A stretch of DNA of 61,503 bases, taken from assembly GCA_001824825.1 (NCBI GenBank), contig MHTK01000004.1:1-61503 (forward strand), in the 5' to 3' direction. The translations under genes were made by a program, and so were the position numbers. Below the pieces are notes generated by a model, which saw only the letters and a list, made by a program, of their open reading frames with translations, did not search any database and was not told the DNA's origin. Numbering within the stretch: position 1 is the first letter of the stretch; each line of letters begins with the position of its first letter. Below are positions 6,427-61,503 of the stretch, piece by piece. This DNA comes from Candidatus Vogelbacteria bacterium RIFOXYD1_FULL_46_19. GTDB lineage: Bacteria > Patescibacteriota > Minisyncoccia > Phycocordibacterales > XYD1-FULL-46-19.

Positions 6427-6512
6427 ACTGCCGGACGACTTTAAGACTTAGTAAGCAAAACAATAGCCCAACTTTTTAAAATATGGTAGCATCTAGAATG
6501 TTAACAACTAAA

Positions 6513-15580: not shown

Positions 15581-15607
15581 AAATAATAAAGCTAGGGAAC
15601 TTAAATG

Positions 15608-15865
15608 TTAGCGAAAAGATAAAAAATTAACAATATAGTCAACCACCAGTTGGGCGCCGGCCATCACCCTATCCCACTCTCCGGCCAGGCCGGCCGGCAC
15701 TAAGCCTTGCCACCAGTCGGCTGAGGCTGATGATACCAGCCACAGATTAAAAAGCCATAAAATAATCACCGCTAAAGTTAGACCAGTGGTCCACACCAAA
15801 AGTAAATGACGCCGCCGGGGCAGCGGATAAGTGCGAACTTTTTCTACATAATTTAAAAGCCACAT
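15608..15865 (-). CDS. Hypothetical small membrane protein
   Basis: Single TM after VRTYPLPRRRH; start moved to avoid overlap with the upstream gene. Confidence 0.55.
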   Translation of the reverse strand: MWLLNYVEKVRTYPLPRRRHLLLVWTTGLTLAVIILWLFNLWLVSSASADWWQGLVPAGLAGEWDRVMAGAQLVVDYIVNFLSFR

Positions 15866-15881
15866 TAAAATCGAAGTCAGA

Positions 15882-16505
15882 CTAAGTCGTTTGTAAAACC
15901 ACAATTTCGGCTTCTTGGCCTTCCAAATCTTTTTTCTTCACCGACAATTTGTCTATTGGTGTTCGGGCGGCTGCTCCGGCTTCCGCCAGAAACTCTGAAA
16001 GCAGACCCGATTTACTATCCCCAAAGAGAACAGGAATAATTATTTTAGATTCGAGGGACGCGGCAAGTTTGGCCGCTGCCTTCGCCGGCAAACTTCCTTC
16101 AGCTCCGGCCGGCGCCACCACAATATCGGCCCCGCTAATTTCTTCGAGCACGTCCGGTGGTAAAGTAGCGACCGCTAAAGCGCCGAGGTGAACCACTCGA
16201 ATACCTTCCAGTAAAAAGCTATAGATAGTGTTAACCTGATCCTGCGGCCCGACCGACTCGTAACCCTTGATAAAAATACCGGAATATTCATACTCACCGG
16301 GACCGTCAATCACAAAAGGTTCTTTAGAGCCAAAAGCGACCGCCTCTTGCCCGTTAAACCCCTCAGTCGGCACCGAAATTAGCGCCACATCCGCCCCAAA
16401 GCGAGCACTTTTAACATCATGACCCTTACCAATCGGGTTCACGGCTACCACAGTGTCCCCAAAGGACACCTTCAAACAGGCTAAGCCATAGTAGGTAATA
16501 ACCAT
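15882..16505 (-). CDS. MBL-fold (Lactamase_B_3-like) protein with degenerate metal site
   Basis: MVITYYGLACL, IDGPGEYEYSGIFIKG, EGIRVVHLG; no HxHxDH motif. Confidence 0.75.
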   Translation of the reverse strand: MVITYYGLACLKVSFGDTVVAVNPIGKGHDVKSARFGADVALISVPTEGFNGQEAVAFGSKEPFVIDGPGEYEYSGIFIKGYESVGPQDQVNTIYSFLLEGIRVVHLGALAVATLPPDVLEEISGADIVVAPAGAEGSLPAKAAAKLAASLESKIIIPVLFGDSKSGLLSEFLAEAGAAARTPIDKLSVKKKDLEGQEAEIVVLQTT

Positions 16506-16721
16506 ATTTAACCATTATAGCAGAAACTAGCCTCAAGTGGAAACCAAACACCCCAGCTCGTCACGAGTTTGGCAAAACTGCCAAACTATGCAATACTAGC
16601 CGCATTATTTATTAGTCCCACTAGAGGGCAACCAGCCTGGAAAGAGTGAGGAGACGCTGGGCCAAGAGTGGGGTCGCCGACTTAAGTATAAGCGGCGGCT
16701 AAAGTTTAAAGAATATTATTA

Positions 16722-17885
16722 ATGACTACTGATACAGCAGTGATGACGGAAGATCGCAGTGTTGTCGACAAAACACCAGTGTCCCTAATGGACAGTCTGG
16801 TGCGCACCACTCCCGAGCGGCCAGAAGTGGATACTTTGATTGATGGCGTGGTAATTGCCAAGGATAAAATGGCGATGTTTGTAGACTTGCCACCTTTTGG
16901 CACCGGTCTTATTTTTGGCCGCGAGTATTTAAATGCCCGCGATCTGATCAAAAAAATTAATATTGGTGATACGGTGACGGCCAAAATTGTAGCCACCGAG
17001 GGGGAAAACGGCTACCTCGAGCTATCCCTCAAAGAAGCCAAGCAGGCTATTCTCTGGGATTCCGCCGAGCGAGCGATGAAAAACAAAGAAATCTTTTCTT
17101 TGGTGGTGCGCGAAGCTAATAAGGGTGGTTTGATTTTAGACTGGCAAGGTATTGATGGCTTTGTCCCTGCCTCTCAGCTTAAGCCCGATCATTACCCCCG
17201 AGTACCGGATGGTGATAAAGACAAGATTGCCGACGAACTGGCCAAATTGGTCGGCTCACCGCTCGAGGTGAGCATCATCGGTATTGATCCGAAAGAAGGC
17301 AAGCTGATCTTTTCCGAAAAAACCCTAGACAGCAAATCACGTAAAGAAATTGTGAATAAGTATGTTTTGGGTGACGTGGTGGAAGGTGAAGTTACCGGGG
17401 CTGTTGATTTTGGTGTTTTCCTTAAAATTGAGGAAGGTTTAGAAGGTCTGGTTCACATTTCTGAGCTGGATTGGTCTTTGGTAGAAGACCCTCGCAGTCT
17501 TTACAAACCGGGTGACAAAATCAAAGCTAAAATTATTGAAATAAAAGAGGATAAAATTTCCTTATCGATCAAGGCTCTAAAAACCAATCCTTGGCATGAA
17601 GCTGAGAAAAAGTACCACAAGGGCGACTTGGTCAGCGGAGTAGTTATTAAATACAACAAACACGGCGCCCTCATCGCCATTGAAGAAGGAGTGGCCGGCT
17701 TGGTGCACATCTCCGAATTTACTGATGAAAGTGACTTACGATCTAAGTTAGAACTAGGTAAAACCTACAATTTTACCATCAACTTATTCGAACCCAAGGA
17801 ACAGCGTATGACTCTAGTCTTTGGCGACCGGCGCGAAGAAATCTTGCAAGCCGGTTCGAAAAAAACCACGGAGCAAAAAGCTTAA
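16722..17885 (+). CDS. rpsA: 30S ribosomal protein S1 (short, multi-S1 domain)
   Basis: Repeated S1 domains (ANKGGL, GFVPASQL, FGVF..GLVHISEL, GLVHISEF). Confidence 0.9.
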   Translation: MTTDTAVMTEDRSVVDKTPVSLMDSLVRTTPERPEVDTLIDGVVIAKDKMAMFVDLPPFGTGLIFGREYLNARDLIKKINIGDTVTAKIVATEGENGYLELSLKEAKQAILWDSAERAMKNKEIFSLVVREANKGGLILDWQGIDGFVPASQLKPDHYPRVPDGDKDKIADELAKLVGSPLEVSIIGIDPKEGKLIFSEKTLDSKSRKEIVNKYVLGDVVEGEVTGAVDFGVFLKIEEGLEGLVHISELDWSLVEDPRSLYKPGDKIKAKIIEIKEDKISLSIKALKTNPWHEAEKKYHKGDLVSGVVIKYNKHGALIAIEEGVAGLVHISEFTDESDLRSKLELGKTYNFTINLFEPKEQRMTLVFGDRREEILQAGSKKTTEQKA

Positions 17886-24798: not shown

Positions 24799-24912
24799 GA
24801 TCCCCCGACATCACGTCTGCCTAGGGGGGATTCACCTCAGGTCAAGACTTCCCCGCCTTGACCACCGTCGGAACCAACCCTTCCCTAAAAGAAGGTTCCG
24901 GCGGCTTTTTTT
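24799..24912 (+). ncRNA. Candidate small structured RNA (unidentified)
   Basis: TTGATT-16-TAAACT upstream (24765-24792), three hairpins, ends in a T run, no ORF. Confidence 0.3.
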
Positions 24913-25023
24913 GTGGGGGATAGAGGACTCGAAACTTACAGTTTCAGTACAGGTTGTCGATATTTTCATACCAAAGGTCTCTGAAAATATCTGACTAACC
25001 TTTTCAAGTCCTCTATCTGCCAC
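24912..25023 (-). repeat. tRNA-anchored mini-element (class A) tailored to tRNA-Val
   Basis: Minus strand: GATAGAGGACTTGAA, AGGTT..AACCT-GTAC, GAAACT-GTA-AGTTTC, AGTCCTCTATCCCCCAC. Confidence 0.85.
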
Positions 25024-28007: not shown

Positions 28008-28137
28008 GACCCCTACGGGGAATCTTTCCCTACGGGAACGGTACAGGCTTCACATCTCGTTTCGCTACGCTCACTGCGATATGTTCAGCCTCTTCGATTC
28101 CCCGACGTGAGCAAAGCAGTTTGCTCACTTAGGGTCA
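28008..28137 (-). repeat. tRNA-anchored mini-element (class A) tailored to tRNA-Glu
   Basis: Minus strand: TGACCCTA[AACTGCTT hairpin]GGGAATCGAA, GAGGCTGAACATATCGCAGTG..CCTGTACCG, TTCCC-GTA-GGGAA, GATTCCCCGTAGGGGTC. Confidence 0.85.
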
Positions 28138-28907: not shown

Positions 28908-28995
28908 GGAGAGGTGGCTCGAGTGGTCTAAGGCACCGGTTTCGAAAACCGGCATACGGGCAACCGTATCGAGGGTTCAAATCCCTCCCTCTCCG
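28908..28995 (+). tRNA. tRNA-Ser(CGA)
   Basis: GGAGAGG/CCTCTCC acceptor, CCGGT-TTCGAAA-ACCGG, long variable arm, discriminator G. Confidence 0.95.
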
Positions 28996-29112
28996 CATCT
29001 AACAGCTAGCACGAAGAACCTCGTTTTAGCTTTACAAAACCACATCACTACGATGTGGTTTTGTAATCTTGAGATGTTATCTTTTAAGATAACATTGTGT
29101 TATACTCAAGAA

Positions 29113-29319
29113 ATGAAAAGTGAGGCTGAAAAGCTCGGTAAAAACCTTAAGCGAATCCGAACAGAAAAAGGAATTACTCAAGGTGATATCGCTAAATCAC
29201 TTAGTGTTAGTCGTGGTTTTGTAAGCAATATTGAGAATGGAAAAACAAATCCAACTCTCTCAACTATTTCGAGACTATCTAACGCGATAGGCGTAACAAC
29301 TGATGAGCTTTTAAAATAA
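29113..29319 (+). CDS. XRE-family HTH regulator (possible controller protein)
   Basis: LGKNLKRIRTEKGITQGDIAKSLSVSRGFVSNIENGKTNPTLSTI; true ATG at 29113. Confidence 0.9.
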   Translation: MKSEAEKLGKNLKRIRTEKGITQGDIAKSLSVSRGFVSNIENGKTNPTLSTISRLSNAIGVTTDELLK

Positions 29320-29320
29320 T

Positions 29321-30073
29321 ATGGCGAGTTTAACGACAATCGAAAAGCAAATACTAGAGAAACTTTTCCAGATGAATGGTGGGTATGTTTTGAATTTTTC
29401 CGATCGGACAATGGGCGAATTTTTCCGAGACGATGTTGGACTTGATATTTACACACAAAAATATAATTACGCCAGTGGATCAAAAGCAAATCGCTTAAGA
29501 GGTTTGTGGCTCAAAGCAGATAATAAAGTAACTGCAAAAAGCATATTGAAGTTGATCGAATATATTGAGAGTCAGATTTTGCTAGATAATCTTAAAAAAT
29601 CAGATTTTCCAGACGATAGAATAAATGCAGGAAGAGAGATTGCTGAAAAGCTACTTGGTAAAAAAGCTGAAGCTAAGGAGAATAAATCAAAAGCGACATT
29701 CAAAAACGGGAATATCAGTATTACTCTGCAAAAGGAGGTCTTTGATCATGTTCAAAAATTGTTAAATGGCGGGCACTATTTTAATGCCGTCGAAGAAGCG
29801 TACAAAATCGTCAGAAAGAAATTGAAAGATGTAACAGGTAAAGAAAAGGCGACCGATGCTTTTAATAATGCAAATTACGAAAAGATTTTTGGTCATCAGC
29901 CTACCGACGATGTAGAAAGCGACTTTTTCGAAGGGGTAAAGTTTTTACACATGTCGATTCAATTTTTGAGAAATGAAAAAGCACATACGCCAGCGCGAGA
30001 TCTCGATAAAAATCTAGCTATTCACTATATTTCGCTGGCTAGCCTTGCGTACGATTTGATAACTAGAAAATAA
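29321..30073 (+). CDS. TIGR02391-family protein with an AbiJ-N-terminal-like domain
   Basis: N-terminal GGYVLNFSDRT..SKANRL; C-terminal HYFNAVEEAYK..G..FLRNEKAH (HEPN-like RxxxxH). Confidence 0.7.
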   Translation: MASLTTIEKQILEKLFQMNGGYVLNFSDRTMGEFFRDDVGLDIYTQKYNYASGSKANRLRGLWLKADNKVTAKSILKLIEYIESQILLDNLKKSDFPDDRINAGREIAEKLLGKKAEAKENKSKATFKNGNISITLQKEVFDHVQKLLNGGHYFNAVEEAYKIVRKKLKDVTGKEKATDAFNNANYEKIFGHQPTDDVESDFFEGVKFLHMSIQFLRNEKAHTPARDLDKNLAIHYISLASLAYDLITRK

Positions 30074-30074
30074 T

Positions 30075-31172
30075 ATGTCTACCAAATCTTCAAACTCAAA
30101 TTTACATCGAGCCGCCAAGGTAAAGAATGACGAGTTTTATACTCGGTTGGTTGATATTGAAAAGGAGCTAAAACATTACAAGGATCAATTTCGAGGTAAG
30201 GTTGTTTATTGTAACTGTGACGATCCATTTGAAAGCAACTTTTTTAAATACTTTGCAGGTAATTTCAATGCACTTGGATTAAAAAGGCTTATTGCTACTA
30301 GCTATAAGCCGTCACCAATTGCCAATACGGAGCTTGTGTTGCAATCATCTCTTCTTCCTGGCTATGAAGATAAGGTTGTTCAAAAACCATCAAAACCAAA
30401 AGGTCGACCAAAAGTAACCGCCAACAAATTTATTATCAACGAAGTAAGTGACATAGACGGCGATGGAGCTTTTGATTTACGCGATATCGCGGAACAGCTT
30501 AAGGCTAACAAGAACAATGAGTGGGCACCACTTGAACTTGAGGGAGATTTTAGAAGCGAGGAAAGTATTGAGCTACTGAAGCAAGCTGACATCGTTGTAA
30601 CAAATCCGCCTTTTTCTCTGTTTCGGGAATATGTAAAGCAATTAGTTGAGCACAAAAAGAAATTTCTAATTATTGGAAGTGATAACGCAAGAAAGTATCA
30701 GGATATCTTTAAACTAGTTCAGGAAAATAAATTGTGGCCTGGGTACAGCAGAGTTAATGAATTTATGCAACCAGATGGGACGGTAAAGAAATTTGGTAAT
30801 GTTGGTTGGTTTACAAATCTTGATGTGTCCAAGCGTCATGAACTTTTGACGCTCTATAAAAAATACTCTCCAGACGAGTTTCCTAAATATGATAATTATG
30901 ACGCTATAGAAGTCTCAAAAGTTTCAGATATTCCAGTTGATTATAAAGGCGTAATGGGTGTTCCAATAACTTTCCTCGATAAATATAATCCGGAACAATT
31001 TGAAATTTTAGGAATGTCAGATAATAGAGATCCAAATTACGAGTATAGAACCAAACTGTATACTCAAGAGGATTCACCACAATACAATGATTTAAATAGG
31101 GGTACTGTGTTGAAGATCAAAGGAGAGCTTAAATCTACATATACGCGTTTATTAATAAAAGCCAAAAAATAG
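30075..31172 (+). CDS. Adenine-specific DNA methyltransferase, EcoRI-methylase family
   Basis: KNDEFYT, VVYCNCDDP, GDFRS, VVTNPPFS, GVPITFLDKYNPEQFEI. Confidence 0.9.
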   Translation: MSTKSSNSNLHRAAKVKNDEFYTRLVDIEKELKHYKDQFRGKVVYCNCDDPFESNFFKYFAGNFNALGLKRLIATSYKPSPIANTELVLQSSLLPGYEDKVVQKPSKPKGRPKVTANKFIINEVSDIDGDGAFDLRDIAEQLKANKNNEWAPLELEGDFRSEESIELLKQADIVVTNPPFSLFREYVKQLVEHKKKFLIIGSDNARKYQDIFKLVQENKLWPGYSRVNEFMQPDGTVKKFGNVGWFTNLDVSKRHELLTLYKKYSPDEFPKYDNYDAIEVSKVSDIPVDYKGVMGVPITFLDKYNPEQFEILGMSDNRDPNYEYRTKLYTQEDSPQYNDLNRGTVLKIKGELKSTYTRLLIKAKK

Positions 31173-31173
31173 T

Positions 31174-32292
31174 ATGAAAATCGATTTACATAAAATTAAA
31201 GTACGGCACGTGGTTGATGGCTACAAAGACAGCGCCGAAGAAGGTGTTGTTGCATACGGTGGCAAGCTCGATGTTCGTCCAAAATATCAACGTGAGTTCG
31301 TCTATAAAGACAAACAGCGAGATGCAGTTATTGATACTGTCAGAAAAGGGTTCCCACTTAACGTCATGTATTGGGTAAAGAGCGCCAAAGACAGTTTTGA
31401 GGTGCTCGATGGACAGCAACGAACAATCAGTGTTGGTCAATTCGTAAATGGAGATTTCTCTGTTGATTTCAATGGTCGAACAGCAATGTTCCATAATCTC
31501 ACTAAAGAGGAGCAAGAACAAATTCTCGACTACGAGTTGATGATCTATTTCTGTGAGGGTACGGACAAGGAAAAGCTTGATTGGTTCAAGATCATCAATA
31601 TCGCTGGTGAGCGACTTACAGATCAGGAACTACGCAACGCTGTATACACTGGTCCGTGGCTATCGGACGCAAAACTCAAGTTCAGTAAATCAAATTGTGC
31701 CGCATATCTCTTAGCGAACGATGGTGGAGCACTGCTTACGGGTTCCCCAATACGACAGGAGTATTTGGAAACTGCGCTTTCTTGGATAAACAACGGAGAA
31801 GTAGCTGACTATATGGCGAAACATCAGCACGACAAGAATGCTAATGAATTGTGGGAATACTTCCAGAACGTTATCGCGTGGGTACGAAAAACCTTCCCTA
31901 ACTACCGCAAAGAAATGGCAAATGTTAATTGGGGTGAGCTATACAACAAGTTTAAAGACAAGAAACTTGATGCTAAAAAGCTAGAAGTTGAAGTTGCAGA
32001 ACTGATGCAGGATGAGGACGTAACGAAAAAATACGGTATCTACCCCTACATTCTCACCAGGCAAGAAAAACATCTCTCAATACGCGCCTTCAATGACAAA
32101 ATGAAGCGTGAGGCATATGAGAGGCAGAAAGGAATATGTGTTGCTAGAAATGCTTCATGCAAAAATGGACATTTTGATATTAGTGAAATGGAGGCTGACC
32201 ACATAAAGCCTTGGCATGAGGGCGGAAAAACAGATGCAAAAAACTGCCAAATGTTGTGCAAGCAGGACAACAGAACTAAGTCCGGGAAATAA
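31174..32292 (+). CDS. DUF262 + HNH endonuclease (GmrSD-like)
   Basis: RPKYQREFVY, EVLDGQQR, C-terminal EADHIKPWHEGGKTDAKNCQMLCKQDN. Confidence 0.9.
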   Translation: MKIDLHKIKVRHVVDGYKDSAEEGVVAYGGKLDVRPKYQREFVYKDKQRDAVIDTVRKGFPLNVMYWVKSAKDSFEVLDGQQRTISVGQFVNGDFSVDFNGRTAMFHNLTKEEQEQILDYELMIYFCEGTDKEKLDWFKIINIAGERLTDQELRNAVYTGPWLSDAKLKFSKSNCAAYLLANDGGALLTGSPIRQEYLETALSWINNGEVADYMAKHQHDKNANELWEYFQNVIAWVRKTFPNYRKEMANVNWGELYNKFKDKKLDAKKLEVEVAELMQDEDVTKKYGIYPYILTRQEKHLSIRAFNDKMKREAYERQKGICVARNASCKNGHFDISEMEADHIKPWHEGGKTDAKNCQMLCKQDNRTKSGK

Positions 32293-32300
32293 AAGGGTGC

Positions 32301-33233
32301 ATGGAAAAACAGGTGACAAAAAATCAACATATTGTACCTCAAAGACATTTGAGAAAATTTTCCCTAACAAGTGACAAGAATAAGCTTAAAGCCTTTGATT
32401 GTGATCTAATTAAAATTTTAAACAAAGATCAGTCAATTATATCGGTTTGTAGTGGACATTTTCATTATGCTCTCGAACCAGGCACAGAAGATAAGTACAG
32501 TCAGGCAGTTGAAGATGCATTTGGAAATCTAGAGACTTGGTATGGAGACAATATCGAGAGAATAGAAAAATCTCTCTTAAGTCAAGAAAAATTGAGTGAC
32601 TCTGATAGATTTGGTCTTTCGTGTGTGATTGCAAATTTCTTCTTTAGGGGTCAAAACTTTAGACGTGAATCGCTAAGTGCACTTAAAGAATTAGTGGACT
32701 GGATGCAGCCGACTGTTAGCGAGCATATTTTTAGCGGAGTTTCAAAAAAGTACCCAGACATATTTACGGATAAGAAAAAAGGCAAAGAAATTGCAGACAA
32801 GGTAACACAAAACGAACTACAGAAAGTTGCTGGTAAAACATCCCACGCGACGCAGAGAGCTTTTGATGTCGGTCATGCTAATACGCTGACACGCAAGAAA
32901 TGGGATATTTTTCTGAATAAGACAGAATATCCTTTCATAACTAGTGATGAAGCAGTGATTGATTTAATGGATCCACGAATTCCAGAAAATTATATGTTGC
33001 GCGGGGCATGGTTGCTTAAAACACAAATTTTTAATCTATCTCCTAAAGTTTCTATCAGTCTCACTTTTCCATTCACAGAAGATCTACGCGGGAAAGTAGA
33101 ATATCGAGAAATGAACAACAAGGGGGACATTTTTAGACACAATTTGTTTTATGTGAATTTTTCTCACAAATACGCCTACGCACCAAATACTGATTTCTTT
33201 AAAGATCTAATCGCTTTTGAAGATAAAAAATGA
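32301..33233 (+). CDS. DUF4238-domain protein
   Basis: KNQHIVPQRHLRKF N-terminal motif; PFITSDEAV. Confidence 0.75.
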   Translation: MEKQVTKNQHIVPQRHLRKFSLTSDKNKLKAFDCDLIKILNKDQSIISVCSGHFHYALEPGTEDKYSQAVEDAFGNLETWYGDNIERIEKSLLSQEKLSDSDRFGLSCVIANFFFRGQNFRRESLSALKELVDWMQPTVSEHIFSGVSKKYPDIFTDKKKGKEIADKVTQNELQKVAGKTSHATQRAFDVGHANTLTRKKWDIFLNKTEYPFITSDEAVIDLMDPRIPENYMLRGAWLLKTQIFNLSPKVSISLTFPFTEDLRGKVEYREMNNKGDIFRHNLFYVNFSHKYAYAPNTDFFKDLIAFEDKK

Positions 33234-33279
33234 AAATAATTTTATGAATAAGTTATCAAAATTATCCAATCTAATATCG

Positions 33280-33486
33280 CTATCTTTCGACGGAATAATC
33301 GACCACATTCTTCCCCTTATCTGACTTCGGCTTTGGCACCTCAAACCATTCCGAATGCTCCTTATGCATTTTCCTCAATTTCTGTATACTTGTATCAAGA
33401 ATCCATAAATTAAACTGCCGTTTTAGTTCTAACTTCGGGACATCATCATCGCCGAGCTGTGACCAAATCTCCCCCTCCCTACCCAA
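33280..33486 (-). CDS. att-adjacent small ORF (GDDDVPKLE family), TTG start in the integrated state
   Basis: Ungapped protein similarity to 54844..55005. Confidence 0.5.
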   Translation of the reverse strand: MGREGEIWSQLGDDDVPKLELKRQFNLWILDTSIQKLRKMHKEHSEWFEVPKPKSDKGKNVVDYSVER

Positions 33487-48446: not shown

Positions 48447-49024
48447 ATCTGTTGTCTATAAGCCGAATTCTGTACCAAGCATCACTTTCAATACTCTTAC
48501 TTGTCTCTCGAAAAATACTGAAAGTGATGCTCGGCGATGGCTATTTATCTGGGAGTACTGTTGCCAGTACCCTCTAGCGGCACAAACCGGTGACTAGCAC
48601 CGGAGTACGGCCTTGCACTTAGGTAAGGATTTAGCCGTTTCACCAATATGTTACCATATTGCTAATCCTTAAAAAGGATTCTCTCGCCTTTCAGCTCAAG
48701 CGTCTCTGCTCGCACCTCTACATTTGCATGCGACGGGTGTTACCCGCTACCCGGCTGCCCCTCACATGAAATAGTCTTATGAATTTTGTGAGCTAAGGTT
48801 GTCACCGAGTTTATAAAAAAGTTGGCTCGATTGAACAAACACAACTACACGGCTTAAACCTCATCTAGACTCACGAGACCATTTCATGTGAGGGGCAAGT
48901 GTTCGGACTTTCCTCCAAGCACCACTTTCAACCATCAAACTTAGACGAGCTTGATTATATGGTGATTAACTAAAATTCACCTTTAGCTGAAAGTGGTGCT
49001 CGGCAACCATCCGGCAACAGACTC
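48447..49024 (-). ncRNA. rnpB: RNase P RNA with large insertions
   Basis: Minus strand: GAGGAAAGTCC (P4 5'), GGTAAC in P8, GTGAAACGG, TGCAAG, ACAGAATTCGGCTTAT (P4 3'); P1 TCTGTTG/CAACAGA. Ends approximate. Confidence 0.92.
48757..48896. repeat. 140-bp insert with perfect 16-bp terminal inverted repeats inside rnpB
   Basis: GCCCCTCACATGAAAT ... ATTTCATGTGAGGGGC. Confidence 0.75.
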
Positions 49025-54547: not shown

Positions 54548-54697
54548 GATAAACCCTCCCTGCCCGACTATTCCGTTAAATTACCCAGTGGAATAGATTG
54601 TCTAATCCTAGAGTAGCATAAGGAGCTTGAGTGTAAATACTTTAAAAGTCGAGTGGTGGACAACTTTACAGTAGAATTCCTCGTGCTAACTATTAGA

Positions 54698-54850
54698 TGC
54701 GGAGGATGAGGGATTTGATTCCTACAGAATCTGTTCAGGTTGACGATATTTTTCTTCTCTAATTCGAAAAATATCAGGCAACCTTTTCTAATCCCTCCTT
54801 CCGCTTGGCGGAACCGCCCCACAGGCGGCCTCCGCAAAAAAGCTTGCGGA
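54698..54850 (-). repeat. Class-A mini-element tailored to a tRNA-Ser but with no tRNA beside it
   Basis: Minus strand: TCCGCA-hairpin-TGCGGAGG[hairpin]GGAGGGATTAGAA, AGGTTG..CAACCT, GATTCT-GTA-GGAATC, AAATCCCTCATCCTCCGCA. Confidence 0.8.
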
Positions 54851-55005
54851 TCTCGCTTTTTGGCGGTGACGATGTCCCGAAGTTAGAACCCATTAGGACG
54901 CTACACTTCAGTCGTGTCGATAAAATTGTAAGGGATTTACGCCGATTATACAAGGAGAATCCTAGCTATTTTGACGTTCCGGCTTTCGCCCAGAAGATTT
55001 ATTAG
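54844..55005 (+). CDS. att-adjacent small ORF (GGDDVPKLE family), TTG start in the integrated state
   Basis: Ungapped similarity to 33280..33486. Confidence 0.5.
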   Translation: MRISLFGGDDVPKLEPIRTLHFSRVDKIVRDLRRLYKENPSYFDVPAFAQKIY

Positions 55006-55038
55006 AATTTCCTTATCCACAATAACGATAAATAGATA

Positions 55039-55067
55039 TTGACAAACGATAAGGGCTAGATTAAGAT
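55039..55067 (+). promoter_or_regulatory. Sigma70-type promoter
   Basis: TTGACA-17 bp-TAAGAT directly before the 55074 operon. Confidence 0.7.
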
Positions 55068-55073
55068 GAATAT

Positions 55074-55430
55074 ATGAATATTTCAAGAACAAAATTCGTT
55101 ATTCTCTTCATCATTTCTGGGTTCGCTTTTATGTTTATCACCAGCACGCTTTTGGGGTCAACAGGCCCCCGAGTATTCCCTAAGCACCCAGACTCTTTCT
55201 TGGGAACAGCGTCACCAATAGCCTGGAAGAATACCGTATCCACAATTATATCGCCTATTAAAGTTGTTTTAATAGGACCTTTGTTGCTTTCTACCGATTT
55301 TTTGCGGGATGATCCTCCACCCCCATTTATTGGTATCTATCTTATTTTCTACTGGACGATTCTTGCCTCAATTATTCATTATCTCCTCCGCAAAATAAAC
55401 ATTCTTAAAACTACAAAAAATAATTTATAA
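55074..55430 (+). CDS. Hypothetical membrane protein
   Basis: Three hydrophobic segments. Confidence 0.65.
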   Translation: MNISRTKFVILFIISGFAFMFITSTLLGSTGPRVFPKHPDSFLGTASPIAWKNTVSTIISPIKVVLIGPLLLSTDFLRDDPPPPFIGIYLIFYWTILASIIHYLLRKINILKTTKNNL

Positions 55431-55439
55431 GAATCACCT

Positions 55440-55922
55440 ATGAAAAAAAGCTCAACAGTATTTCTTCAAGTAGTCATCGTGCTCATCGGCATCGTGGCAC
55501 TAGCCATTATGATTCGGTTTCCCCAAACCGAAGGGAGGGCCGCAAACTTAGACCTGTTCAGTATTTATGCCGATCCATTCATTGTGTATATGTACCTCGC
55601 GTCTATTGCATTTTTTGTTGCGCTGTATCAGGCATTTAAACTGCTCGGGTACATTGGAAAAAACAGGGTGTTCTCGCAAGCGTCCGTGAACGCATTGCGT
55701 GCAATAAAATACTGCGCAATGATACTCATCGGTTTTTTTGTGGGGGCAGAAGGCTACATCAATATTGTCTCGCGCAAAGCAGGGGAGGATATTGCCGGCG
55801 GAGTGATGATGGGAGTTATCTTGATCTTTATCTCTGCTGTGGTAGCCACTGCGGCGGCGGTGTTTGAGAAAACGTTGCAAAGTGCCGTCGATATCAAGTC
55901 CGAGAACGACTTAACCGTTTAA
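55440..55922 (+). CDS. DUF2975-domain membrane protein
   Basis: LYQAFKLL..FSQASVNALRAIKYC..VFEKTLQSAVDIKSENDLTV. Confidence 0.9.
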   Translation: MKKSSTVFLQVVIVLIGIVALAIMIRFPQTEGRAANLDLFSIYADPFIVYMYLASIAFFVALYQAFKLLGYIGKNRVFSQASVNALRAIKYCAMILIGFFVGAEGYINIVSRKAGEDIAGGVMMGVILIFISAVVATAAAVFEKTLQSAVDIKSENDLTV

Positions 55923-55926
55923 TGCT

Positions 55927-56130
55927 ATGGCAATCATCATAAACATCGATGTCATGTTGGCGAAGCGGAAGATGAGCGTCACCGAGCTCGCCGAGAAAGT
56001 CGGCATCACAATGGCTAATATTTCTGTATTGAAAAACAGCAAGGCAAAAGCAATTCGCCTCTCAACGTTGGAGGCAATTTGCAAAGCTTTAGAGTGTCAG
56101 CCCGGAGATATTTTGGAGTATAAGAAGTAA
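55927..56130 (+). CDS. Cro/C1-type HTH regulator (YozG-like)
   Basis: IINIDVMLAKRKMSVTELAEKVGITMANISVLKNSKAKAIRLSTLEAICKALECQPGDILEY. Confidence 0.93.
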   Translation: MAIIINIDVMLAKRKMSVTELAEKVGITMANISVLKNSKAKAIRLSTLEAICKALECQPGDILEYKK

Positions 56131-56170
56131 AAGAAAATCCGGTCTTACATAAGCCGGATTTTCTTTTACT
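56126..56170. terminator. Bidirectional terminator between the DUF2975 operon and the lysis cassette
   Basis: AGTAAAAGAAAATCCGG ... CCGGATTTTCTTTTACT. Confidence 0.8.
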
Positions 56171-56178
56171 TAAGAGGA

Positions 56179-56388
56179 TTATTCCTCTCCTCGGGCATCC
56201 TCTATCAATCTCTGTTCTTTGAGGTATCTGGTCACTGAATACCACCCCGCATTGATCACTGGGATCAGTAACGCCCAACGAGGGTCGTTCTCGGCATAGG
56301 CGATCAGTATCGGCAGGATTGCTGATACTGCGGAGTAAAAGAACACGATCGCAAGGTGCTTCAGAGCTTCTTTTTGAGGTGTTGTCAT
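56179..56388 (-). CDS. Putative holin (2 TM, charged C-terminus)
   Basis: Directly downstream of the amidase. Confidence 0.55.
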   Translation of the reverse strand: MTTPQKEALKHLAIVFFYSAVSAILPILIAYAENDPRWALLIPVINAGWYSVTRYLKEQRLIEDARGEE

Positions 56389-56393
56389 AGTGG

Positions 56394-56960
56394 TTAAAAT
56401 GATCGCTTAATAATTGCCAATCCTTCCTCGATTTTCCTCACACCGTCCTCGATAGAGGGATTGGTCGTTTGTTGGCCGGCAAGTGCGACCAGCTCGTCGA
56501 GGATCGCCTTGTTGATTGCTGGACAGTTTGGTTTCTTTGAGAAGATCTCAAAGTGGCCAACGATGTGATTCCGGTCGATTGGAATCTGCCATCGCTGGCA
56601 AATTTCTCGAATCAGGGTTGCACTTGATTGCTTCATGGCATCAGTCCACACGTCGTTCGGTTTACCCTCATGTTCAATCCCGACCGTGTACAGGTTTGGA
56701 TTGACGTTCGGTTTTATGAGCTTCCATAGAGGCGCATCGACACGACCGGCGTGCCAGGCGGCATCGTTTTCTTGCACATACTGGTGGACTTCACCGGTTT
56801 TCCCGATTCCGTAATGTGCGCTTACTTGTGATGATGGATTCGCAAACCACGAATCGGTGCCAATGAGCGTTCCATCCATGATGTGGATGACGATGCCCTC
56901 CGGTCGGTAACCTTTGCGACCACTCCAGAAGTTAGGAGACTTTTTTTGAATGATGTTCAT
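56394..56960 (-). CDS. N-acetylmuramoyl-L-alanine amidase (Amidase_2), probable endolysin
   Basis: IVIHI, SAHYGIG, AWHAG, VGIEHE, IVGHFE, KPNCP. Confidence 0.92.
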   Translation of the reverse strand: MNIIQKKSPNFWSGRKGYRPEGIVIHIMDGTLIGTDSWFANPSSQVSAHYGIGKTGEVHQYVQENDAAWHAGRVDAPLWKLIKPNVNPNLYTVGIEHEGKPNDVWTDAMKQSSATLIREICQRWQIPIDRNHIVGHFEIFSKKPNCPAINKAILDELVALAGQQTTNPSIEDGVRKIEEGLAIIKRSF

Positions 56961-56964
56961 AATC

Positions 56965-57192
56965 TTATTTGTTAATTGTTAGTAGTAAGTTAATGACTGC
57001 AGTGATCAAACCTCCCACCGATGCGGTGGCAACAATCCAGAAGAATCGTTTGACCCAATCGACATCCGTACCGACCTTGGTTAGTTCGATCTGTATGTGT
57101 GGCAGATGATTGTCTTTGATTTCATTCACCGTCTTTTCAACACGGTCGAGACGCTCATCTTGCATTCGGTTTTGATACTCTGATCTTTCCAT
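56965..57192 (-). CDS. Small coiled-coil plus C-terminal TM protein (XhlA/holin-like)
   Basis: True start MERSEYQ at 57192; NHLPHIQ..DVDWVKRFFWIVATASVGGLITAVINLLL. Confidence 0.65.
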   Translation of the reverse strand: MERSEYQNRMQDERLDRVEKTVNEIKDNHLPHIQIELTKVGTDVDWVKRFFWIVATASVGGLITAVINLLLTINK

Positions 57193-57196
57193 ATGA

Positions 57197-60010
57197 TTAT
57201 TTCGGCACGTACACCGAGTCGAACCTATTGATGAGACCTCTGCTTTCCAGTGTTTCCTCAAGACTGTCTTGCATCTCTCGATCTCGCCAGAATTTCTCCT
57301 TTTCCATGTCGACCGATCTCGCTTTCGCCCCGACAATTCCATATAGGAATTTCACAACACCGGCAGTCTTATCATCGGTAAGTTTGCCGGCCGTAGTGTA
57401 GAAGCGTCCGAGAGCGGTGTTTAGGAAGTGGAGTTTGTAAGCGTTGGCTCGATAGCTCACGATTCCGTTTTTGTTCGTGTGCTCTGATACTTCCATCCAG
57501 TCTCGCAGTCCGGGGATTGAATTGATGAATGGATAGACTCGGCTGTTTTCTTTGATCGGCTCGCCCATGAAGAGGTTTTGTCCGGTGGCCGCTTCAATCG
57601 GATATTTCAGGATCGGTGACAGTTCACCCACGAAGCTCGCTAGTGTTCGTTGAGGACTTCCTTTATAGAGTCGGTTGATGTCCTCGACCGGCAGACCGAG
57701 ACCGTAGAGATATTGCGAGAATCCCTCTTTCTCACCGAGTCGGACTGGCAATCCCTCTCGCATGTATGGTGGCAAGTATTGGAATTCCTCTTTCGCTTTT
57801 TCCTTATCGACTTGAAGGTTGTCTACAAGCTTGCCGATGGCGGCGTATTTACCGGGCTGTTTTGCCATTTGCTCAAGTTGGAGAGGGATATTGCCACGAG
57901 TCCATCGGTAGAACGGCATGAGTCGCTTCATTACGTTTTGTTCAAACTTCGCAAGACCCTCTGGTGCATAGTCGAAGTGAAATTGGAATACTGCCTTGGC
58001 GGCATCCTCCGGTGCGTCACCTTTTATCAAACGATCCAAGAAGAGTGGTAGACGCAGACGGTTTTCAGTGATCTCCATCGCACCTTTCGGGAGATCCATC
58101 AGTTTCCCAACAGGACTTTTTCCTATGTCTTTCTCGACCTCACGCATCACATCCAAGTAGCCGGGCTGGCCAACGACTCCCAGTTTTTCAGTCATCTCTT
58201 TTATTTGTTGGTAGGTGTACTTGGTACCTAGTTTTGTTGTTATTGAACCTTTCATACCCCGAGCGATCTGATCGCCTTGGAGGTATCGTGCCGGATTTTT
58301 CACACCGGCTATAAAGTTGTTGAAAATTCCACCGATTGAGTTGCGAACATGGAAAGCTGGAAACCAGCCGGTTACTGATCCCTTCCAGAAATTGAGAGCT
58401 TTATCGTAGAGCTTTAGGAATCCCTTAGTTGCTTCATCATTCGTGAGCACCTTATATGTTTCCTCGACATGCTTCACGATCTGTTCAGGCAAAAGCACTC
58501 CCTTTAATTGAGGCACGGTGCTTTCAACGTACCGAATGCCGTTCTCAAAGATTGGCTTTACTGTCTCTCTGGTCATCATCTTTCCGGTTACAGGATTCCT
58601 TATTTCTTTCGTGATGACTTCGCCTTGCTTGCCGAATTGCTTTCCAGCTTCAGTTAAAAAGTCGTAGGTGTTTACAGCTCTGATATGCTCGGCTTTGCGT
58701 GCGCCGAATGCTTTAAATGCATCCTGCTCAAACAGTCTCACTCCGTGAGTTCTTCGGAAGTATTTATTGATATTGTCGACTGTGTCGTCGAGGGTTCGAG
58801 ACTTTGCAAACGGTGTGCTTACTCGCATCTTTCCTGTTAGCTCGTCAGCGACATCACTATTCTTTTGCAAAAAGTCACGGCCTTCCGGTGTCAGATAGTG
58901 GCGTAAGTAATCCGGTAGCTCGGTATGGAGTAGACCCTTTTCTTTTTCAATATTTGCAAATCGTTTATGCTCGCCCTGAATGTGACTAATAATGTTGTCG
59001 ATCGCACCGCTTCCTTTGGTAGCGATTTGCTCGACTCCGTCGGCCGCCTTTGCAGGAAGATCGGCCATTCCCTCGATCAGTCGGCCGACTCTGGTGCCAG
59101 CATCTTTGCCAAGTTCTTTTCTTGCTGTTTTACCGAGATCGATTGCTTCGTCAGCGGCCTTACCGACTTCGGACCGGGTTGCTTTGGTGAATTGAGAAAA
59201 CTTGTCGACATACTCCTCACCGATACGTCCCGGCAGGTCTTTGATGCTTTTAAATGGTACAAATGCTTTGCCAGCGAGGTCTTTTGCACTTTCATACATT
59301 TTGCCGACGACAGGTGTCTTTTCTACGAGCCAGTCTGCGGCCTTGAATGGTGCGGTGACAGCCGATCGTGGAAGCACTTGTTGACCGGCAAATTTTAGAC
59401 CTCCTTTGGCAAGATACCTTTCGCCCCCTTCCGCAAGAATCTTTTCTGCCAATGCTTTCCGGGCGGCTGTCTCACCGACTTCCTGTATAGACTTTTTGAG
59501 GAGTGACGTTCCGGATTTACTGAGCACGACCGTCCCGGCTTTGGTTGCGAGTTTTGCACCGGCCCCATAGCCGAATGTTAAGTACGTTGTCGGATCAAGC
59601 AGGACGTCTGCGATAAAACCACCGACTTTGCTCTTGATTCCGAGTGCTTCAGACGGCTGTATGTGTTCTTGGATTCCGGCTTTGATTCCTTTTCCGCTTA
59701 TAAGGCCTCCGACAGCATACCCACCAGTATTGAGTACGTGGAGGATTCTTTGCAGAGTTGATGCTTTCGGTTGAGTGGAGGATACATCGAGATTATTTTG
59801 CAAGGCAAAGTCTCGCAACCCCTCGACAGTGGTCACGTTTGGTTTACCGGCCGGTTTCTCAACCTCGGTCGTTACATATTTCCCCTCGGCATTCTTTTGA
59901 TACTGCACGACGTTACCGGGAGCGGGTGCAGACTTTGGGAGTGGAGGAGAGACCGGTGCAGAACCGGTGTTTATGTACTTTCCAGTTTTTGGGTCTTTGA
60001 TGTAGGCCAT
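57197..60010 (-). CDS. Large phage virion-associated protein (internal/ejection-like; LPD38-like C-terminus suspected)
   Basis: 937 aa, Ala/Gly/Lys-rich; FHFDY..FEQNVMKRLMPFYRWTRGNIPLQ; located between the LysM gene and lysis genes. Confidence 0.55.
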   Translation of the reverse strand: MAYIKDPKTGKYINTGSAPVSPPLPKSAPAPGNVVQYQKNAEGKYVTTEVEKPAGKPNVTTVEGLRDFALQNNLDVSSTQPKASTLQRILHVLNTGGYAVGGLISGKGIKAGIQEHIQPSEALGIKSKVGGFIADVLLDPTTYLTFGYGAGAKLATKAGTVVLSKSGTSLLKKSIQEVGETAARKALAEKILAEGGERYLAKGGLKFAGQQVLPRSAVTAPFKAADWLVEKTPVVGKMYESAKDLAGKAFVPFKSIKDLPGRIGEEYVDKFSQFTKATRSEVGKAADEAIDLGKTARKELGKDAGTRVGRLIEGMADLPAKAADGVEQIATKGSGAIDNIISHIQGEHKRFANIEKEKGLLHTELPDYLRHYLTPEGRDFLQKNSDVADELTGKMRVSTPFAKSRTLDDTVDNINKYFRRTHGVRLFEQDAFKAFGARKAEHIRAVNTYDFLTEAGKQFGKQGEVITKEIRNPVTGKMMTRETVKPIFENGIRYVESTVPQLKGVLLPEQIVKHVEETYKVLTNDEATKGFLKLYDKALNFWKGSVTGWFPAFHVRNSIGGIFNNFIAGVKNPARYLQGDQIARGMKGSITTKLGTKYTYQQIKEMTEKLGVVGQPGYLDVMREVEKDIGKSPVGKLMDLPKGAMEITENRLRLPLFLDRLIKGDAPEDAAKAVFQFHFDYAPEGLAKFEQNVMKRLMPFYRWTRGNIPLQLEQMAKQPGKYAAIGKLVDNLQVDKEKAKEEFQYLPPYMREGLPVRLGEKEGFSQYLYGLGLPVEDINRLYKGSPQRTLASFVGELSPILKYPIEAATGQNLFMGEPIKENSRVYPFINSIPGLRDWMEVSEHTNKNGIVSYRANAYKLHFLNTALGRFYTTAGKLTDDKTAGVVKFLYGIVGAKARSVDMEKEKFWRDREMQDSLEETLESRGLINRFDSVYVPK

Positions 60011-60016
60011 AGCGTT

Positions 60017-61354
60017 TTAATTTCCGATACCGAAGAGACCCTTCAAGAAGCTCTTGCCGGTGTTGTATCCGGACTTCGCGAGGTTCGGTATCTGTTGTGT
60101 GAATACGTCTTTGACCCCAGCACCGAAGTCTTGAGCGGTTATTCTTGGTTGACCTGATTTCAAAGCTTGAGCGGCGGCCGCATCCGCTTGCTGTTGAGCA
60201 TTTGCTTCAGCGATGATCTGATCTCGTTTCTGCAGGACTTGGGCCCGGATGTTTTGCGGTACATTGCTTGCGGTAAAGTTCGGATTATTAAGAAGTTCGA
60301 GTGCGTAAGCTTCTATGTCGCTCGATGAACCTCCTCCATCTGATCCGCTACCTGACTTTGCGCCGACTACTTTTGTGCCAGCAATGTCATGCACTGTTCC
60401 GGCTGGGGTGCTGTTGGAAAGGTTTGCGAGTTGAATTGCTCGATTGATCACATCTTGAGCGTCTTTCTTTTCCTGCTCTTTGCCGTACTTGGATGCTTCG
60501 ACGATGTTTGCAACATCTTTTTCTGAAGCACCGAATACTTGTTTCAAGATGTCCCCGAGGACGCTGTATTGGTCTTTCTGGAATCCAAGTGTTTTTTCTG
60601 CGACCGTGAGTGGCAATGTAGAATCCTCGTACTGCATGCCGGCCGCATCTTTGGCAGATGAATCTGCAACCCCGAGCTTATCGGCCAGTCGATTTCTTTC
60701 GTTGAGAAGTTTTCGGTATTCGTCTATGAGTGGTTGCTTTTCTGAAGCGACAAGTCTTTGAGTTTGACTCTCGGTTACGAGACCGCCACCCTTTACCATT
60801 CGATTGCGGATGTCTTTCTCTGAATCATCGATCGCAAGTTCCATCGATGCCAAGCGATCATCTAAACTCAAAAGATTTTTCTGCATCACATCTACACCAC
60901 GCTTCACCTTTTCTTGCTCATAAATGTCTGCTTTTTTAGGCAGATTTTTGAGTGATTCGAGGTAGGAAGTCTGGCTATCCTGCATGCTTTTGAGGGCAGA
61001 ATCGAGACCGAGTTCGGATCGGTACTTTGTGAGCAAACTGGTCGAAGAAGGCACTTCAGCGCCATACAGGGTGCTTTTCTGGGGTACACCGCTCGCCCCC
61101 GGGCTCGAAATTTGGTCAACGCGCTGGGTTACGGGCGAAGAAGGTGTTACGGGTGCAGGAGGAGTTGGAACGCTCGCCTTAGGGGCAACAACGGGTGAAG
61201 TCGGTGCTCCGGGCAAGTTCAGGCTCGAACCGGCGTATATCAGGTTCGGATTCTTGATACTTGGATTCGCTTTCAGCAGGGCGTCGATCGACGTTCCTTG
61301 CTGTCTGGCGATTCCCGATAGGGTCTGACCTTTTTGTATTGTTATTGTTGCCAT
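60017..61354 (-). CDS. LysM-domain phage virion protein
   Basis: ITIQKGQTLSGIARQQG..LLKANPSIKNPNLIYAGSSLNLP, then Pro-rich and coiled-coil regions. Confidence 0.85.
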   Translation of the reverse strand: MATITIQKGQTLSGIARQQGTSIDALLKANPSIKNPNLIYAGSSLNLPGAPTSPVVAPKASVPTPPAPVTPSSPVTQRVDQISSPGASGVPQKSTLYGAEVPSSTSLLTKYRSELGLDSALKSMQDSQTSYLESLKNLPKKADIYEQEKVKRGVDVMQKNLLSLDDRLASMELAIDDSEKDIRNRMVKGGGLVTESQTQRLVASEKQPLIDEYRKLLNERNRLADKLGVADSSAKDAAGMQYEDSTLPLTVAEKTLGFQKDQYSVLGDILKQVFGASEKDVANIVEASKYGKEQEKKDAQDVINRAIQLANLSNSTPAGTVHDIAGTKVVGAKSGSGSDGGGSSSDIEAYALELLNNPNFTASNVPQNIRAQVLQKRDQIIAEANAQQQADAAAAQALKSGQPRITAQDFGAGVKDVFTQQIPNLAKSGYNTGKSFLKGLFGIGN

Positions 61355-61360
61355 AAGTTT

Positions 61361-61503
61361 TTAAGTAAGTGTTGCGTACCTCCACGCTCCGTTAAAAAAT
61401 ACGTAGAACCGTCGCGTACCACCGTTCTCGTACAACGCAAAGCTGATCTGGTATCCCGGTGTCTCAGTCGGCACGCTGTTCAAGATTGGAATGTCACGCA
61501 GAA
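61361..61503 (-). CDS. C-terminal end of a phage protein (partial)
   Basis: Manual translation ...LRDIPILNSVPTETPGYQISFALYENGGTRRFYVFFNGAWRYATLT*. Confidence 0.6.
   Translation of the reverse strand, partial: LRDIPILNSVPTETPGYQISFALYENGGTRRFYVFFNGAWRYATLT

Follow-up and report, generated by a model that had tools for sequence, protein, structure and literature searches.

The right-hand part of a 61,503-nucleotide stretch of Candidatus Vogelbacteria bacterium RIFOXYD1_FULL_46_19 (GenBank assembly GCA_001824825.1, contig MHTK01000004.1, positions 1 to 61,503; this whole stretch is called the window) contains the border between the host chromosome and a prophage. At this border lies a small folded element, the Ser unit (54698-54836, with the minus strand as sense strand), which is a full member of a family of structured modules tailored to tRNAs. 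The Ser unit is anomalous in lacking a cognate tRNA directly upstream: the closest tRNA is more than 13 kb away, and the nearest sequence on the flank where the tRNA would be expected belongs to the prophage. The plus strand of 54698-54805 reads TGCGGAGGATGAGGGATTTGATTCCTACAGAATCTGTTCAGGTTGACGATATTTTT...AAAAATATCAGGCAACCTTTTCTAATCCCTCCTTCCGC, and the parts of the unit and of the sequence that joins it to the prophage are the following.

54698-54718, minus strand: sense arm TCAAATCCCTCATCCTCCGCA, a 3' end of the tRNA-Ser(GGA) type that begins at T-loop position ~55, reaches the discriminator and adds CA; pairs with the RT arm and R_acc in the minimum-energy fold
54717-54731, minus strand: P3, a small hairpin (GATTCT-GTA-GGAATC) seen in the fold and the hallmark of the module class; its 3' strand abuts the remainder of the T-loop
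54737-54784, minus strand: P2, a long AT-rich hairpin (AGGTTG..GATATTTTT...AAAAATATC..CAACCT) seen in the fold and in the alignment with the Val unit; the 'constant core' of an earlier, sequence-only reading of the locus
54785-54797, minus strand: RT arm and junction (GAGGGATT AGAAA), an antisense copy of the tRNA-Ser T-loop and T-stem 3' strand that is mismatched to ATTTGAA at one position
54799-54813, minus strand: HP1b (TTCCGC CAA GCGGAA), the second of two inserted hairpins that split the antisense arm in the fold
54814-54828, minus strand: HP1 (CCGCC TGTGG GGCGG), the first of these inserted hairpins
54829-54836, minus strand: R_acc TGCGGAGG, antisense to the acceptor 3' strand CCTCCGCA; closes the module through 8 bp with 54698-54705
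54837-54860, minus strand: spacer AAAAGCGAGATCCGCAAGCTTTTT, an A-run, hairpin and T-run, the B' arm of attR
54861-54890, minus strand: P arm of the prophage, GGTTCTAACTTCGGGACATCGTCACCGCCA, the left half of attP and attR; ends in CCGCCA and imitates a tRNA-Ser 3' end in stretched form

In the predicted fold, a second pairing joins the RT arm (54790-54797) to the sense arm (54708-54715), and HP1, HP1b, P2 and P3 form the branches. Folded as RNA, the Ser unit reaches a dG of -68.5 kcal/mol (z = -6.0, none of 200 shuffles being as stable), and as DNA it reaches z = -8.2. The antisense sequence at 54785-54797 is GGAGGGATTAGAA, and the same RT-arm layout occurs in the Leu, Val, Glu, Lys and Arg units, while the helix base of P2, AGGTT/AACCT, is conserved in four class-A units. 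The antisense arm is also split by an HP1-like hairpin in the Leu, Glu and Lys units of the window and in that of the genome L030, and spacers of the same A-run, hairpin and T-run style lie behind the Lys, Val, Phe, Arg and Leu tRNAs.

The closest comparator is the Val unit behind tRNA-Val(GAC) (24911-25017, minus strand), which scores 96.7 bits with the covariance model described below. The sequence-only reading had proposed that the Ser unit aligns with it from end to end, and this is borne out by global alignment of 54698-54805 (minus), where the score of 28.5 stands against -6.6 +/- 4.5 for shuffles (z = 7.9). The 16-nt core motif AGGTTGNCGATATTTT is limited to these two units, with exact matches at 24951 (Val) and 54737 (Ser), 0.15 matches being expected in the window and two or more being found in 0 of 100 shuffles. 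A third unit of the same build lies at 7024-7126, behind tRNA-Leu(TAG). The reading was also right that the arms spell a tRNA-Ser-type 3' end unlike that of the window's own tRNA-Ser(CGA), which ends in ...TCAAATCCCTCCCTCTCCGCA and differs from the Ser-unit arm at three positions of the acceptor strand. Its right limit at 54850 has to be moved, as this position falls inside the 24-nt spacer and the unit itself ends at 54836. The TGCGGA repeats by which it had bounded the element are indeed present (54698-54703 and 54845-54850, among nine copies across the whole window), but the first copy is the end of the sense arm and the second lies in the loop of the spacer hairpin, part of B', so that the pair was rejected both as a target duplication and as an att repeat.

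Attachment sites at the phage/host junction

The junction between phage and host DNA lies at 54860|54861. The P arm of the window is identical in 29 of 30 nt to that of an intact attP (...CACCGCCA|GACAATTT...) in L122, a phage of the IMG/VR collection. Five relatives share the sequence up to ...ATCG(T/C)CACCGC(C)A and then diverge at window 54861|54860, and homology to L122, L123, L163, L167 and the variant contigs of the sample stops at 54858-54863. The opposite phage arm, P' (GACAATTT..TATCGG..ACCCAC), directly follows the CCA end of tRNA-Ser in L174, a chromosome of the Candidate Phyla Radiation (CPR), where the tRNA is of the TGA type, and in L176-178, from a second CPR genome, where it is of the GCT type. 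The islands of L174 and L176 contain, 2-3.6 kb from the tRNA, a gene for a large serine recombinase (LSR) that is 83% and 82% identical, respectively, to that of L122; the LSRs of L122, L174 and L176 all belong to one family. The four sites read as follows.

L122, attP of the intact phage: ...GGTTCTAACTTCGGGACATCGCCACCGCCA G GACAATTTCTTATCGG, continuing as GACAATTTCTTATCGGAGCGACCCAC
L174, attL: tRNA-Ser(TGA)...CTCTCCGCCA C GACAATTTAGTATCGG, in longer form ...GGGTTCGAATCCCACCCTCTCCGCCA C GACAATTTAGTATCGGTAGACCCAC
L176-178, attL: tRNA-Ser(GCT)...CTCTCCGCCA T GACAATTTAGTATCGG, in longer form ...GGGTTCGAATCCCTCCCTCTCCGCCA T GACAATTTAGTATCGGCAGACCCAC
Window, attR (minus strand): ...GGTTCTAACTTCGGGACATCGTCACCGCCA A AAAGCGAG, continuing as AAAGCGAGATCCGCAAGCTTTTT and then the module

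By sequence comparison, these are the attP, attL, attL and attR of one integrase family with the common core CCGCCA, which places the crossover within or beside ...CCGCCA, the last letters of the tRNA. Because the window P arm matches that of L122 and P' follows CCA ends, the spacer and the module are B', host DNA that formerly lay behind the CCA end of a tRNA-Ser. The span from GGTTC to CCGCCA measures 30 nt in the phage arm and 25 nt in the tRNA. In serine integrases, as studied with LI integrase, attP carries the motif bound by the zinc-ribbon domain (ZD) 5 bp farther outward than attB does (PMC3783163), and the longer spacing of the phage arm fits this rule. Neither an LSR gene nor the P' motif (the GACAATTT arm) was found either in the window or in the adjoining 1.67 kb of the contig, and both must therefore lie at the other end of the prophage. 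The passage from host DNA into the small phage open reading frame (ORF) is crossed by one 4,328-nt contig from public runs of the same aquifer, with a depth of 12.2x against 12.6x for the neighbouring contig that holds the prophage's moron genes.

The locus is probably the attR of a prophage that an LSR inserted at the ...CCGCCA 3' end of a minus-strand tRNA-Ser(GGA) gene, leaving the module orphaned, and this explains why an adjacent tRNA is missing. The sequence-only reading had likewise placed the integration at the 3' end of a minus-strand tRNA-Ser and had expected a recombinase gene near the far end. The comparison of the P and P' arms strongly supports the attR that it implied, and the far junction stays a prediction. 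Its view that the element is older than the prophage and did not block integration follows from the assignment of spacer and module to B', though the order of events behind it is a matter of inference.

The same border could be divided differently if the module belonged to the phage. The sequence from the spacer to P3 would then be the P arm of attP, the sense arm at 54698-54718 would be a classical attR repeat, and the crossover would fall in the T-loop. In favour of this, attR classically shows itself as a direct copy of the tRNA 3' end where a prophage meets its host; in a second element of the window, island A, a homologue of the small ORF is followed after 10 nt by a degenerate 3' copy of tRNA-Ser(CGA); and this layout likewise predicts a tRNA-Ser(GGA) at the far end. 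Yet the attP of L122 passes from ...CACCGCCA to GACAATTT without a module, and the L122-type P' arm abuts the CCA ends of tRNA-Ser in L174 and L176, which puts the crossover at CCGCCA and not in the T-loop. Modules with similar spacers also stand behind eight window tRNAs that are free of phage, and the covariance model finds none in the related phages, prophages and LSR loci (L122, L123, L153, L159, L162-L169, L174-L178). The modules are not phage-borne, and ownership of the Ser unit by the phage is highly improbable.

Searches for further copies of the locus and for its far end covered several collections. Scans of viral contigs for the junction CCGCCAAAAAGCGAGA and for the small-ORF motif gave chance matches or L122 itself only, and a metagenome scan for the unit-specific GGAATCAAATCCCTCATCCTCCG gave a single 1.3-kb contig of the same population. 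A walk along the closest integrated relative, a 521-kb contig of the Joint Genome Institute (JGI; L159, L162 and L168), reached no tRNA, LSR or synteny, and L163 and L167 end in or run into unrelated DNA. Viral contigs with relatives of the LSR contained no tRNA-Ser, and Logan contigs matching a tRNA-Ser(GGA) reference were too short or came from other organisms. One contig of about the host's depth (11.3x in X1, 6.5x in X3) apparently joins an L122-like P' arm directly to the 3' end of an LSR gene; its short side measures only 28-31 nt, and it could be the far end of the window prophage.

Two side observations concern the relatives' attachment regions. The P' arms of L174 (8150-8190) and L176 (9900-9950) contain TTTAGTATC, with TTTCTTATC at the same place in L122, and TTTAGTATC is letter for letter the ZD motif in the attP of the Listeria LI integrase (PMC3783163); this likeness may be a coincidence, or the CPR integrases may read DNA in the manner of the A118/LI family. 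Just upstream of the LSR start (L122:18140-18175, L174:4960-4995, L176:4960-4995) lies (G/T)GGCGGTGG(T/G)G(T/C)GTCCAG, an inverted look-alike of the P-arm end TGGCGGTGACGATGTCC, which possibly gives the element another att-like site, in mirror image, in its interior.

The module family and the tRNA probably displaced

Inspection of the 300 nt downstream of each of the 11 tRNA genes in the window revealed structured modules of ~105-140 nt behind eight of them: Lys, Leu(CAG), Leu(TAG), Val, Glu, Phe, Arg and Gly. All have the same orientation as their tRNA and share one order of parts, in which a short terminator-like spacer is followed by an antisense copy of the tRNA's own acceptor and T-arm, a hairpin core and a sense copy of the 3' end. 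In seven units, including the Ser unit, the class skeleton runs from the antisense arm through T(T/C/A)GAA, P2, ACC(T/A)G.. and P3 (with a GTA-type loop) to the T-loop remainder, the T-stem 3' strand and the acceptor 3' strand. The Ser unit has the antisense arm, whose layout recurs in seven other units, a P2 closed by AGGTT/AACCT, a P3 with a YGTAR loop before the sense arm, and a sense copy that starts at ~55.

The fold is supported by covariation. In the alignment of the seven units, 89% of the cells are paired and 13 of the 22 pairs vary on both sides, values reached in 0 of 500 column shuffles, and sliding the partners by one column lowers the pairing to 52-62%. The P3 stem varies as ATTCC/GGAAT, TTCCC/GGGAA, AAACT/AGTTT, CCCCC/GGGGG and CCGAT/ATCGG, with five of its six pairs changing on both sides, and provides the cleanest covariation because its sequence, unlike that of the closing stem, is not dictated by the tRNA. 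A covariance model built from the seven units (six window copies and the unit of L030) scores its six window training copies at 62-97 bits and the L030 unit at 58 bits, the Ser unit reaching 91.7 bits (E = 4e-22). The model also recovered a Lys2 unit outside the training set (6281-6433) at 44 bits and found nothing else significant in the window. A scan of Rfam to E = 10 gave no family, only a single chance match to a miRNA hairpin (E = 4.1), with none on the Leu or Lys units, and a full-text literature search found no description of such modules. A hammerhead-like reading of the P2 motif CAGTGAGCG.AGCGAAAC was rejected, as the core does not fit and Rfam gives no match.

Some units carry further conserved elements. 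The loop of HP1 is AACTGCT(T) in the Lys, Leu(CAG), Leu(TAG) and Glu units (6100-6130, 6725-6750, 7000-7025, 28110-28135); it is found neither in the Ser unit, where the loop is TGTGG, nor in the Val unit, which has no HP1, and could be a motif for protein binding or a tertiary contact. The Leu(TAG), Glu and Lys2 units (7048-7085, 28040-28080, 6300-6345) have another P2, in which GCAGTGA, a short stem and GAAACGAGA are conserved; its likeness to a hammerhead core is superficial, as it does not fit one and Rfam gives no match.

The main rival concerning the nature of the modules is that they are functional structured RNAs, co-transcribed with the tRNA and serving in processing or as chaperone or decoy, of which the Ser copy would be stranded and probably decaying. 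This interpretation bears on the nature of the module only and is compatible with the integration described above. It draws on the conserved three-way-junction fold, the strong covariation in P3 and the closing stem, the junction sequences conserved among modules (TTGAA.AGG, ACCTGTAC and the GTA loop) and the constant orientation relative to the tRNA. Against these points, the closing stem is bound to covary, its arms being tRNA-derived, the hairpins are equally stable as DNA, no Rfam family matches, and the cut-off Ser copy keeps a sense arm equal to the tRNA-Ser(GGA) consensus, so that the copy either became separated recently or can do without an adjacent tRNA. We consider a functional RNA conceivable but rather unlikely. 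In the metatranscriptomes of the same study, groundwater contigs match only conserved 30-40-nt pieces of the RNase P RNA (window 48455-48920) and skip its variable inserts; these contigs come from other organisms, and the Vogelbacterium host is not detectably represented in those RNA runs.

The displaced gene is most likely a minus-strand tRNA-Ser(GGA), an assignment made on the module's letters because both the sense arm and R_acc TGCGGAGG are tailored to this tRNA. In L030, L069, L112, L075 and L081, five Patescibacteria genomes among the matches listed (Paceibacteria, Taylorbacteria and Saccharibacteria), tRNA-Ser(GGA) ends exactly in AAATCCCTCATCCTCCG. In L030, the tRNA-Ser(GGA) is still adjoined by a unit of the same class with an identical TGCGGAGG arm. 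A scan of genome contigs with AAATCCCTCATCCTCCG returned, among the matches listed, mostly tRNA-Ser of Actinobacteria, this genome being absent from them.

A probable older layer and the neighbouring genes

Beyond the sense arm, on the host side, lies a trailer that resembles the sequence behind the other tRNA-Ser of the window.

54676-54697, minus strand: trailer TCTAATAGTTAGCACGAGGAAT behind the sense arm, homologous to the 22 nt behind tRNA-Ser(CGA) (28997-29018)
28908-29018, plus strand: tRNA-Ser(CGA) and its trailer TCTAACAGCTAGCACGAAGAAC, the comparator; left junction of the 4.5-kb defence island A

The two trailers match at 18 of 22 positions, and BLAST extends the similarity to an inverted match of 38 nt (87% identity, E = 1.8e-4). 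Island A (28997-33486, 4.5 kb), a region of low GC content at tRNA-Ser(CGA), encodes XRE, Hypoth_Ymh, an EcoRI-type methylase, GmrSD_N+HNH and DUF4238, and no recombinase. At its far end stands a homologue of the small phage ORF (33280-33486, minus strand), followed by the degenerate 3' copy of tRNA-Ser(CGA), CAAATCTCCCCCTCCCTACCC (33464-33484). Island A looks like a decayed relative of the LSR elements, and the trailer at 54676-54697, to judge from its likeness to the other trailer, probably derives from an older island of type A, of which it would be the P' arm. Most simply, the two trailers would represent P' arms from a single family of islands, and the Ser sense arm would once have ended, or served as the end of, a tRNA-Ser(GGA) gene. 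Viral-contig scans with the trailer motif TCTAAYAGYTAGCACGA gave chance matches or L122 only, the motif itself not being found in viral contigs.

The similarity of the two sites also bears on a different origin of the orphan, as a leftover of rearrangement. An inversion or deletion between 28977-29019 and 54676-54718, or the loss of the 5' part of a tRNA, would have produced it, with the live tRNA-Ser(GGA) lying elsewhere and unjoined to the prophage. The two tRNA-Ser-derived sites are indeed inverted and 25.7 kb apart, they share an imperfect repeat of 38-43 nt that includes ~21 nt beyond the tRNA sequence, and the far prophage end is unseen. Chance placement is unlikely, however, where the phage arm meets the spacer exactly at the crossover point of the relatives' attP; all assemblies and contigs of the population show a single arrangement, and the trailer likeness is more simply that of a P' arm of a related island. 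Rearrangement is thus an improbable source of the orphan, and we keep to its displacement by the LSR prophage.

To the right of the junction, the window contains the following parts of this prophage.

54862-55005, plus strand: small phage ORF (GGDDVPKLE..., ~47 conserved residues), overlapping the P arm
54997-56177, plus strand: strain-variable moron, identified from Pfam and gene calls, with a 118-aa membrane protein, a DUF2975 protein and a small helix-turn-helix protein
56179-61503, minus strand: prophage late genes, with holin-like ORFs, an Amidase_2 endolysin, a 937-aa protein and a 445-aa LysM protein, continuing past the window

The late genes have 78-82% nucleotide identity to the phages L122 and L123, both of which carry an SU10-type capsid gene and an LSR. 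The LSR of the L122 type has at least 8,000 homologues at E <= 1e-30; the best 120 listed are 73-100% identical, and those of them that carry a source name are mostly from Patescibacteria. Homologues of the small ORF occur in L122, in L123 (directly downstream of the LSR), in L163 and L167, and in island A. The small ORF has no match in Pfam or PHROG and is possibly a directionality factor or an integrase-linked gene. Its depth of 57-66x against 12x in the flanks arises because several phages in the sample share it. The notion that it gains an ATG by circularisation was rejected, as the frames fail to join for island A. The moron (1.2 kb) is absent from L122 and is skipped in variant contigs, which join 54996 to 56177/56179 with ~33 other letters between. 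In L122, the interval from attP to the integrase (14312-16752) holds a LexA/S24-type repressor and a pair resembling a cyclic-oligonucleotide-based antiphage signalling system (CBASS), namely a weak SMODS/nucleotidyltransferase match and a Cap15 receptor domain, and on the other side of the integrase there is a type I restriction R subunit. On the host side, the chromosome left of the Ser unit encodes unknown small ORFs, a SET-domain gene, DsbA, VKOR, a class II ribonucleotide reductase, a tetratricopeptide repeat protein, MurJ and LepA. The nearest relatives of the SET gene have at most 61% identity or lie on 1-kb contigs, and no synteny was found.

Probable order of events and relation to known systems

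Before integration, the order at the locus would have been that kept at the eight other window tRNAs: tRNA-Ser(GGA), a short spacer of A-run, hairpin and T-run, the structured module and its sense arm, so that the empty site would have shown tRNA-Ser(GGA) followed directly by AAAAGCGAGATCCGC. The phage attP (small ORF / GGTTCTAAC...CACCGCCA | GACAATTT...), centred on CACCGCCA|GGACAATTT, would then have recombined with the tRNA end. The tRNA would have moved to the far end of the prophage, where it would be joined to the P' arm and to the lysogeny genes including the LSR, and the spacer and module would have stayed behind as an orphan at 54698-54860. The predicted far junction is a tRNA-Ser(GGA) ending in ...CCCTCATCCTCCGCCA and followed by a GACAATTT-type arm, or CATCCTCCGCCA-N-GACAATTTNNTATCGG on the tRNA-sense strand.

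The module itself is a gene-free, folded member of its family, composed of a split antisense arm, P2, P3 and the sense arm. There is about an even chance, judging by this layout, that it is a small non-autonomous insertion into the T-loop that supplies the gene with a new 3' end. Such an insertion would bring a replacement 3' end and a terminator, and the displaced original 3' end would be kept as the sense arm. Elements would in this way have accreted serially at one tRNA, from the old island through the module to the prophage, with the newest nearest the tRNA. More tentatively, and with the odds against it, the modules may be undescribed, gene-free, self-folding elements that home to tRNA T-loops through an address of their own, split antisense arms pairing as DNA or RNA with the last ~20 nt of the tRNA, their sense arms acting as secondary landing pads for integrases.

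Several points weigh against this account of an LSR prophage displacing a tRNA-Ser(GGA). The far prophage end is unseen, as the contig ends ~1.67 kb right of the window, two other assemblies of the population break earlier, at or just inside the prophage edge, and no Logan contig extends the sequence. The collections searched contain no relative with an empty site, four runs gave no variant contig, and JGI metagenomes hold the same population only. Phages of the attP form diverge from one another at ...CACCGCCA, so that the breakpoint alone is no proof of a host junction and the P' comparison is needed, and the block of identity common to attP and the tRNA end, CCGCCA, is short. The two integrated relatives use tRNA-Ser(TGA) and tRNA-Ser(GCT), not GGA, the latter being read from the module arms. 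The antisense arm of the Ser unit is imperfect, one copy having lost 2 nt and RT containing a mismatch, and T-loop insertion as the module's mechanism is deduced from layout.

The locus shares several features with the LSR prophages and islands of A118/LI integrase, SPbeta SprA, phiC31 and Bxb1. The genes of the related phages carry Resolvase, Recombinase and Zn_ribbon_recom domains, attP has a short common core, the hybrid attL and attR sites can be read from three loci, a small ORF beside the att site is a candidate directionality factor, and attP has its distal motif shifted outward by 5 bp relative to attB, as for LI integrase (PMC3783163). Unlike in these systems, the target here is the extreme CCA end of tRNA-Ser genes, the attP P arm of the window imitates the T-arm and acceptor strand of the tRNA and is at the same time coding, and the LSR of the window prophage is predicted. 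The targeting of tRNA ends is usually ascribed to tyrosine integrases.

Tandem accretion at tRNA and tmRNA genes is known from genomic islands, cis-mobilizable elements (CIMEs) and the ssrA islands of Dehalococcoides, and gene-free, att-flanked remnants are known there as well (reviews PMC5704250, PMC3146451). The Ser locus resembles these in its stack of elements behind one tRNA, with the newest nearest the gene and a copy of the tRNA 3' end for each step. The module differs from CIMEs and island scars in not being a plain attL-attR scar, having instead a conserved, covarying three-way-junction core. To our knowledge, one or two antisense copies of a tRNA end, as found in the modules, occur in no described CIME or island scar. 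The modules also resemble recombination sites that act as folded hairpins, such as integron attC and the attP of CTX-phi, in that two inverted target-like copies ~80-100 nt apart can fold into a duplex mimicking the target. Unlike in those systems, there is no sign here of an integron integrase, of XerCD dependence or of a single-stranded replicon, and the modules remain intact in the chromosome beside their target.

For a temperate phage of a CPR bacterium, the locus provides an att map that is concrete down to single bases, and it shows a very large LSR family landing on tRNA ends, a role usually given to tyrosine integrases, at the CCA terminus of tRNA-Ser and with an attP arm that mimics the tRNA. 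It leads to precise predictions, namely the sequence of the far junction and a pair of ~50-bp recombination sites. The module family matches no Rfam model. The Ser unit is a natural separation experiment, with a module that keeps its full fold after being severed from its tRNA at a known point, and its sense arm drags along an arm of an older island, which favours displaced genuine gene ends or landing pads over freshly templated guides. If modules do home to T-loops, the Ser locus would record an island, a module and an LSR phage at a single tRNA end, with the module persisting intact without its tRNA.

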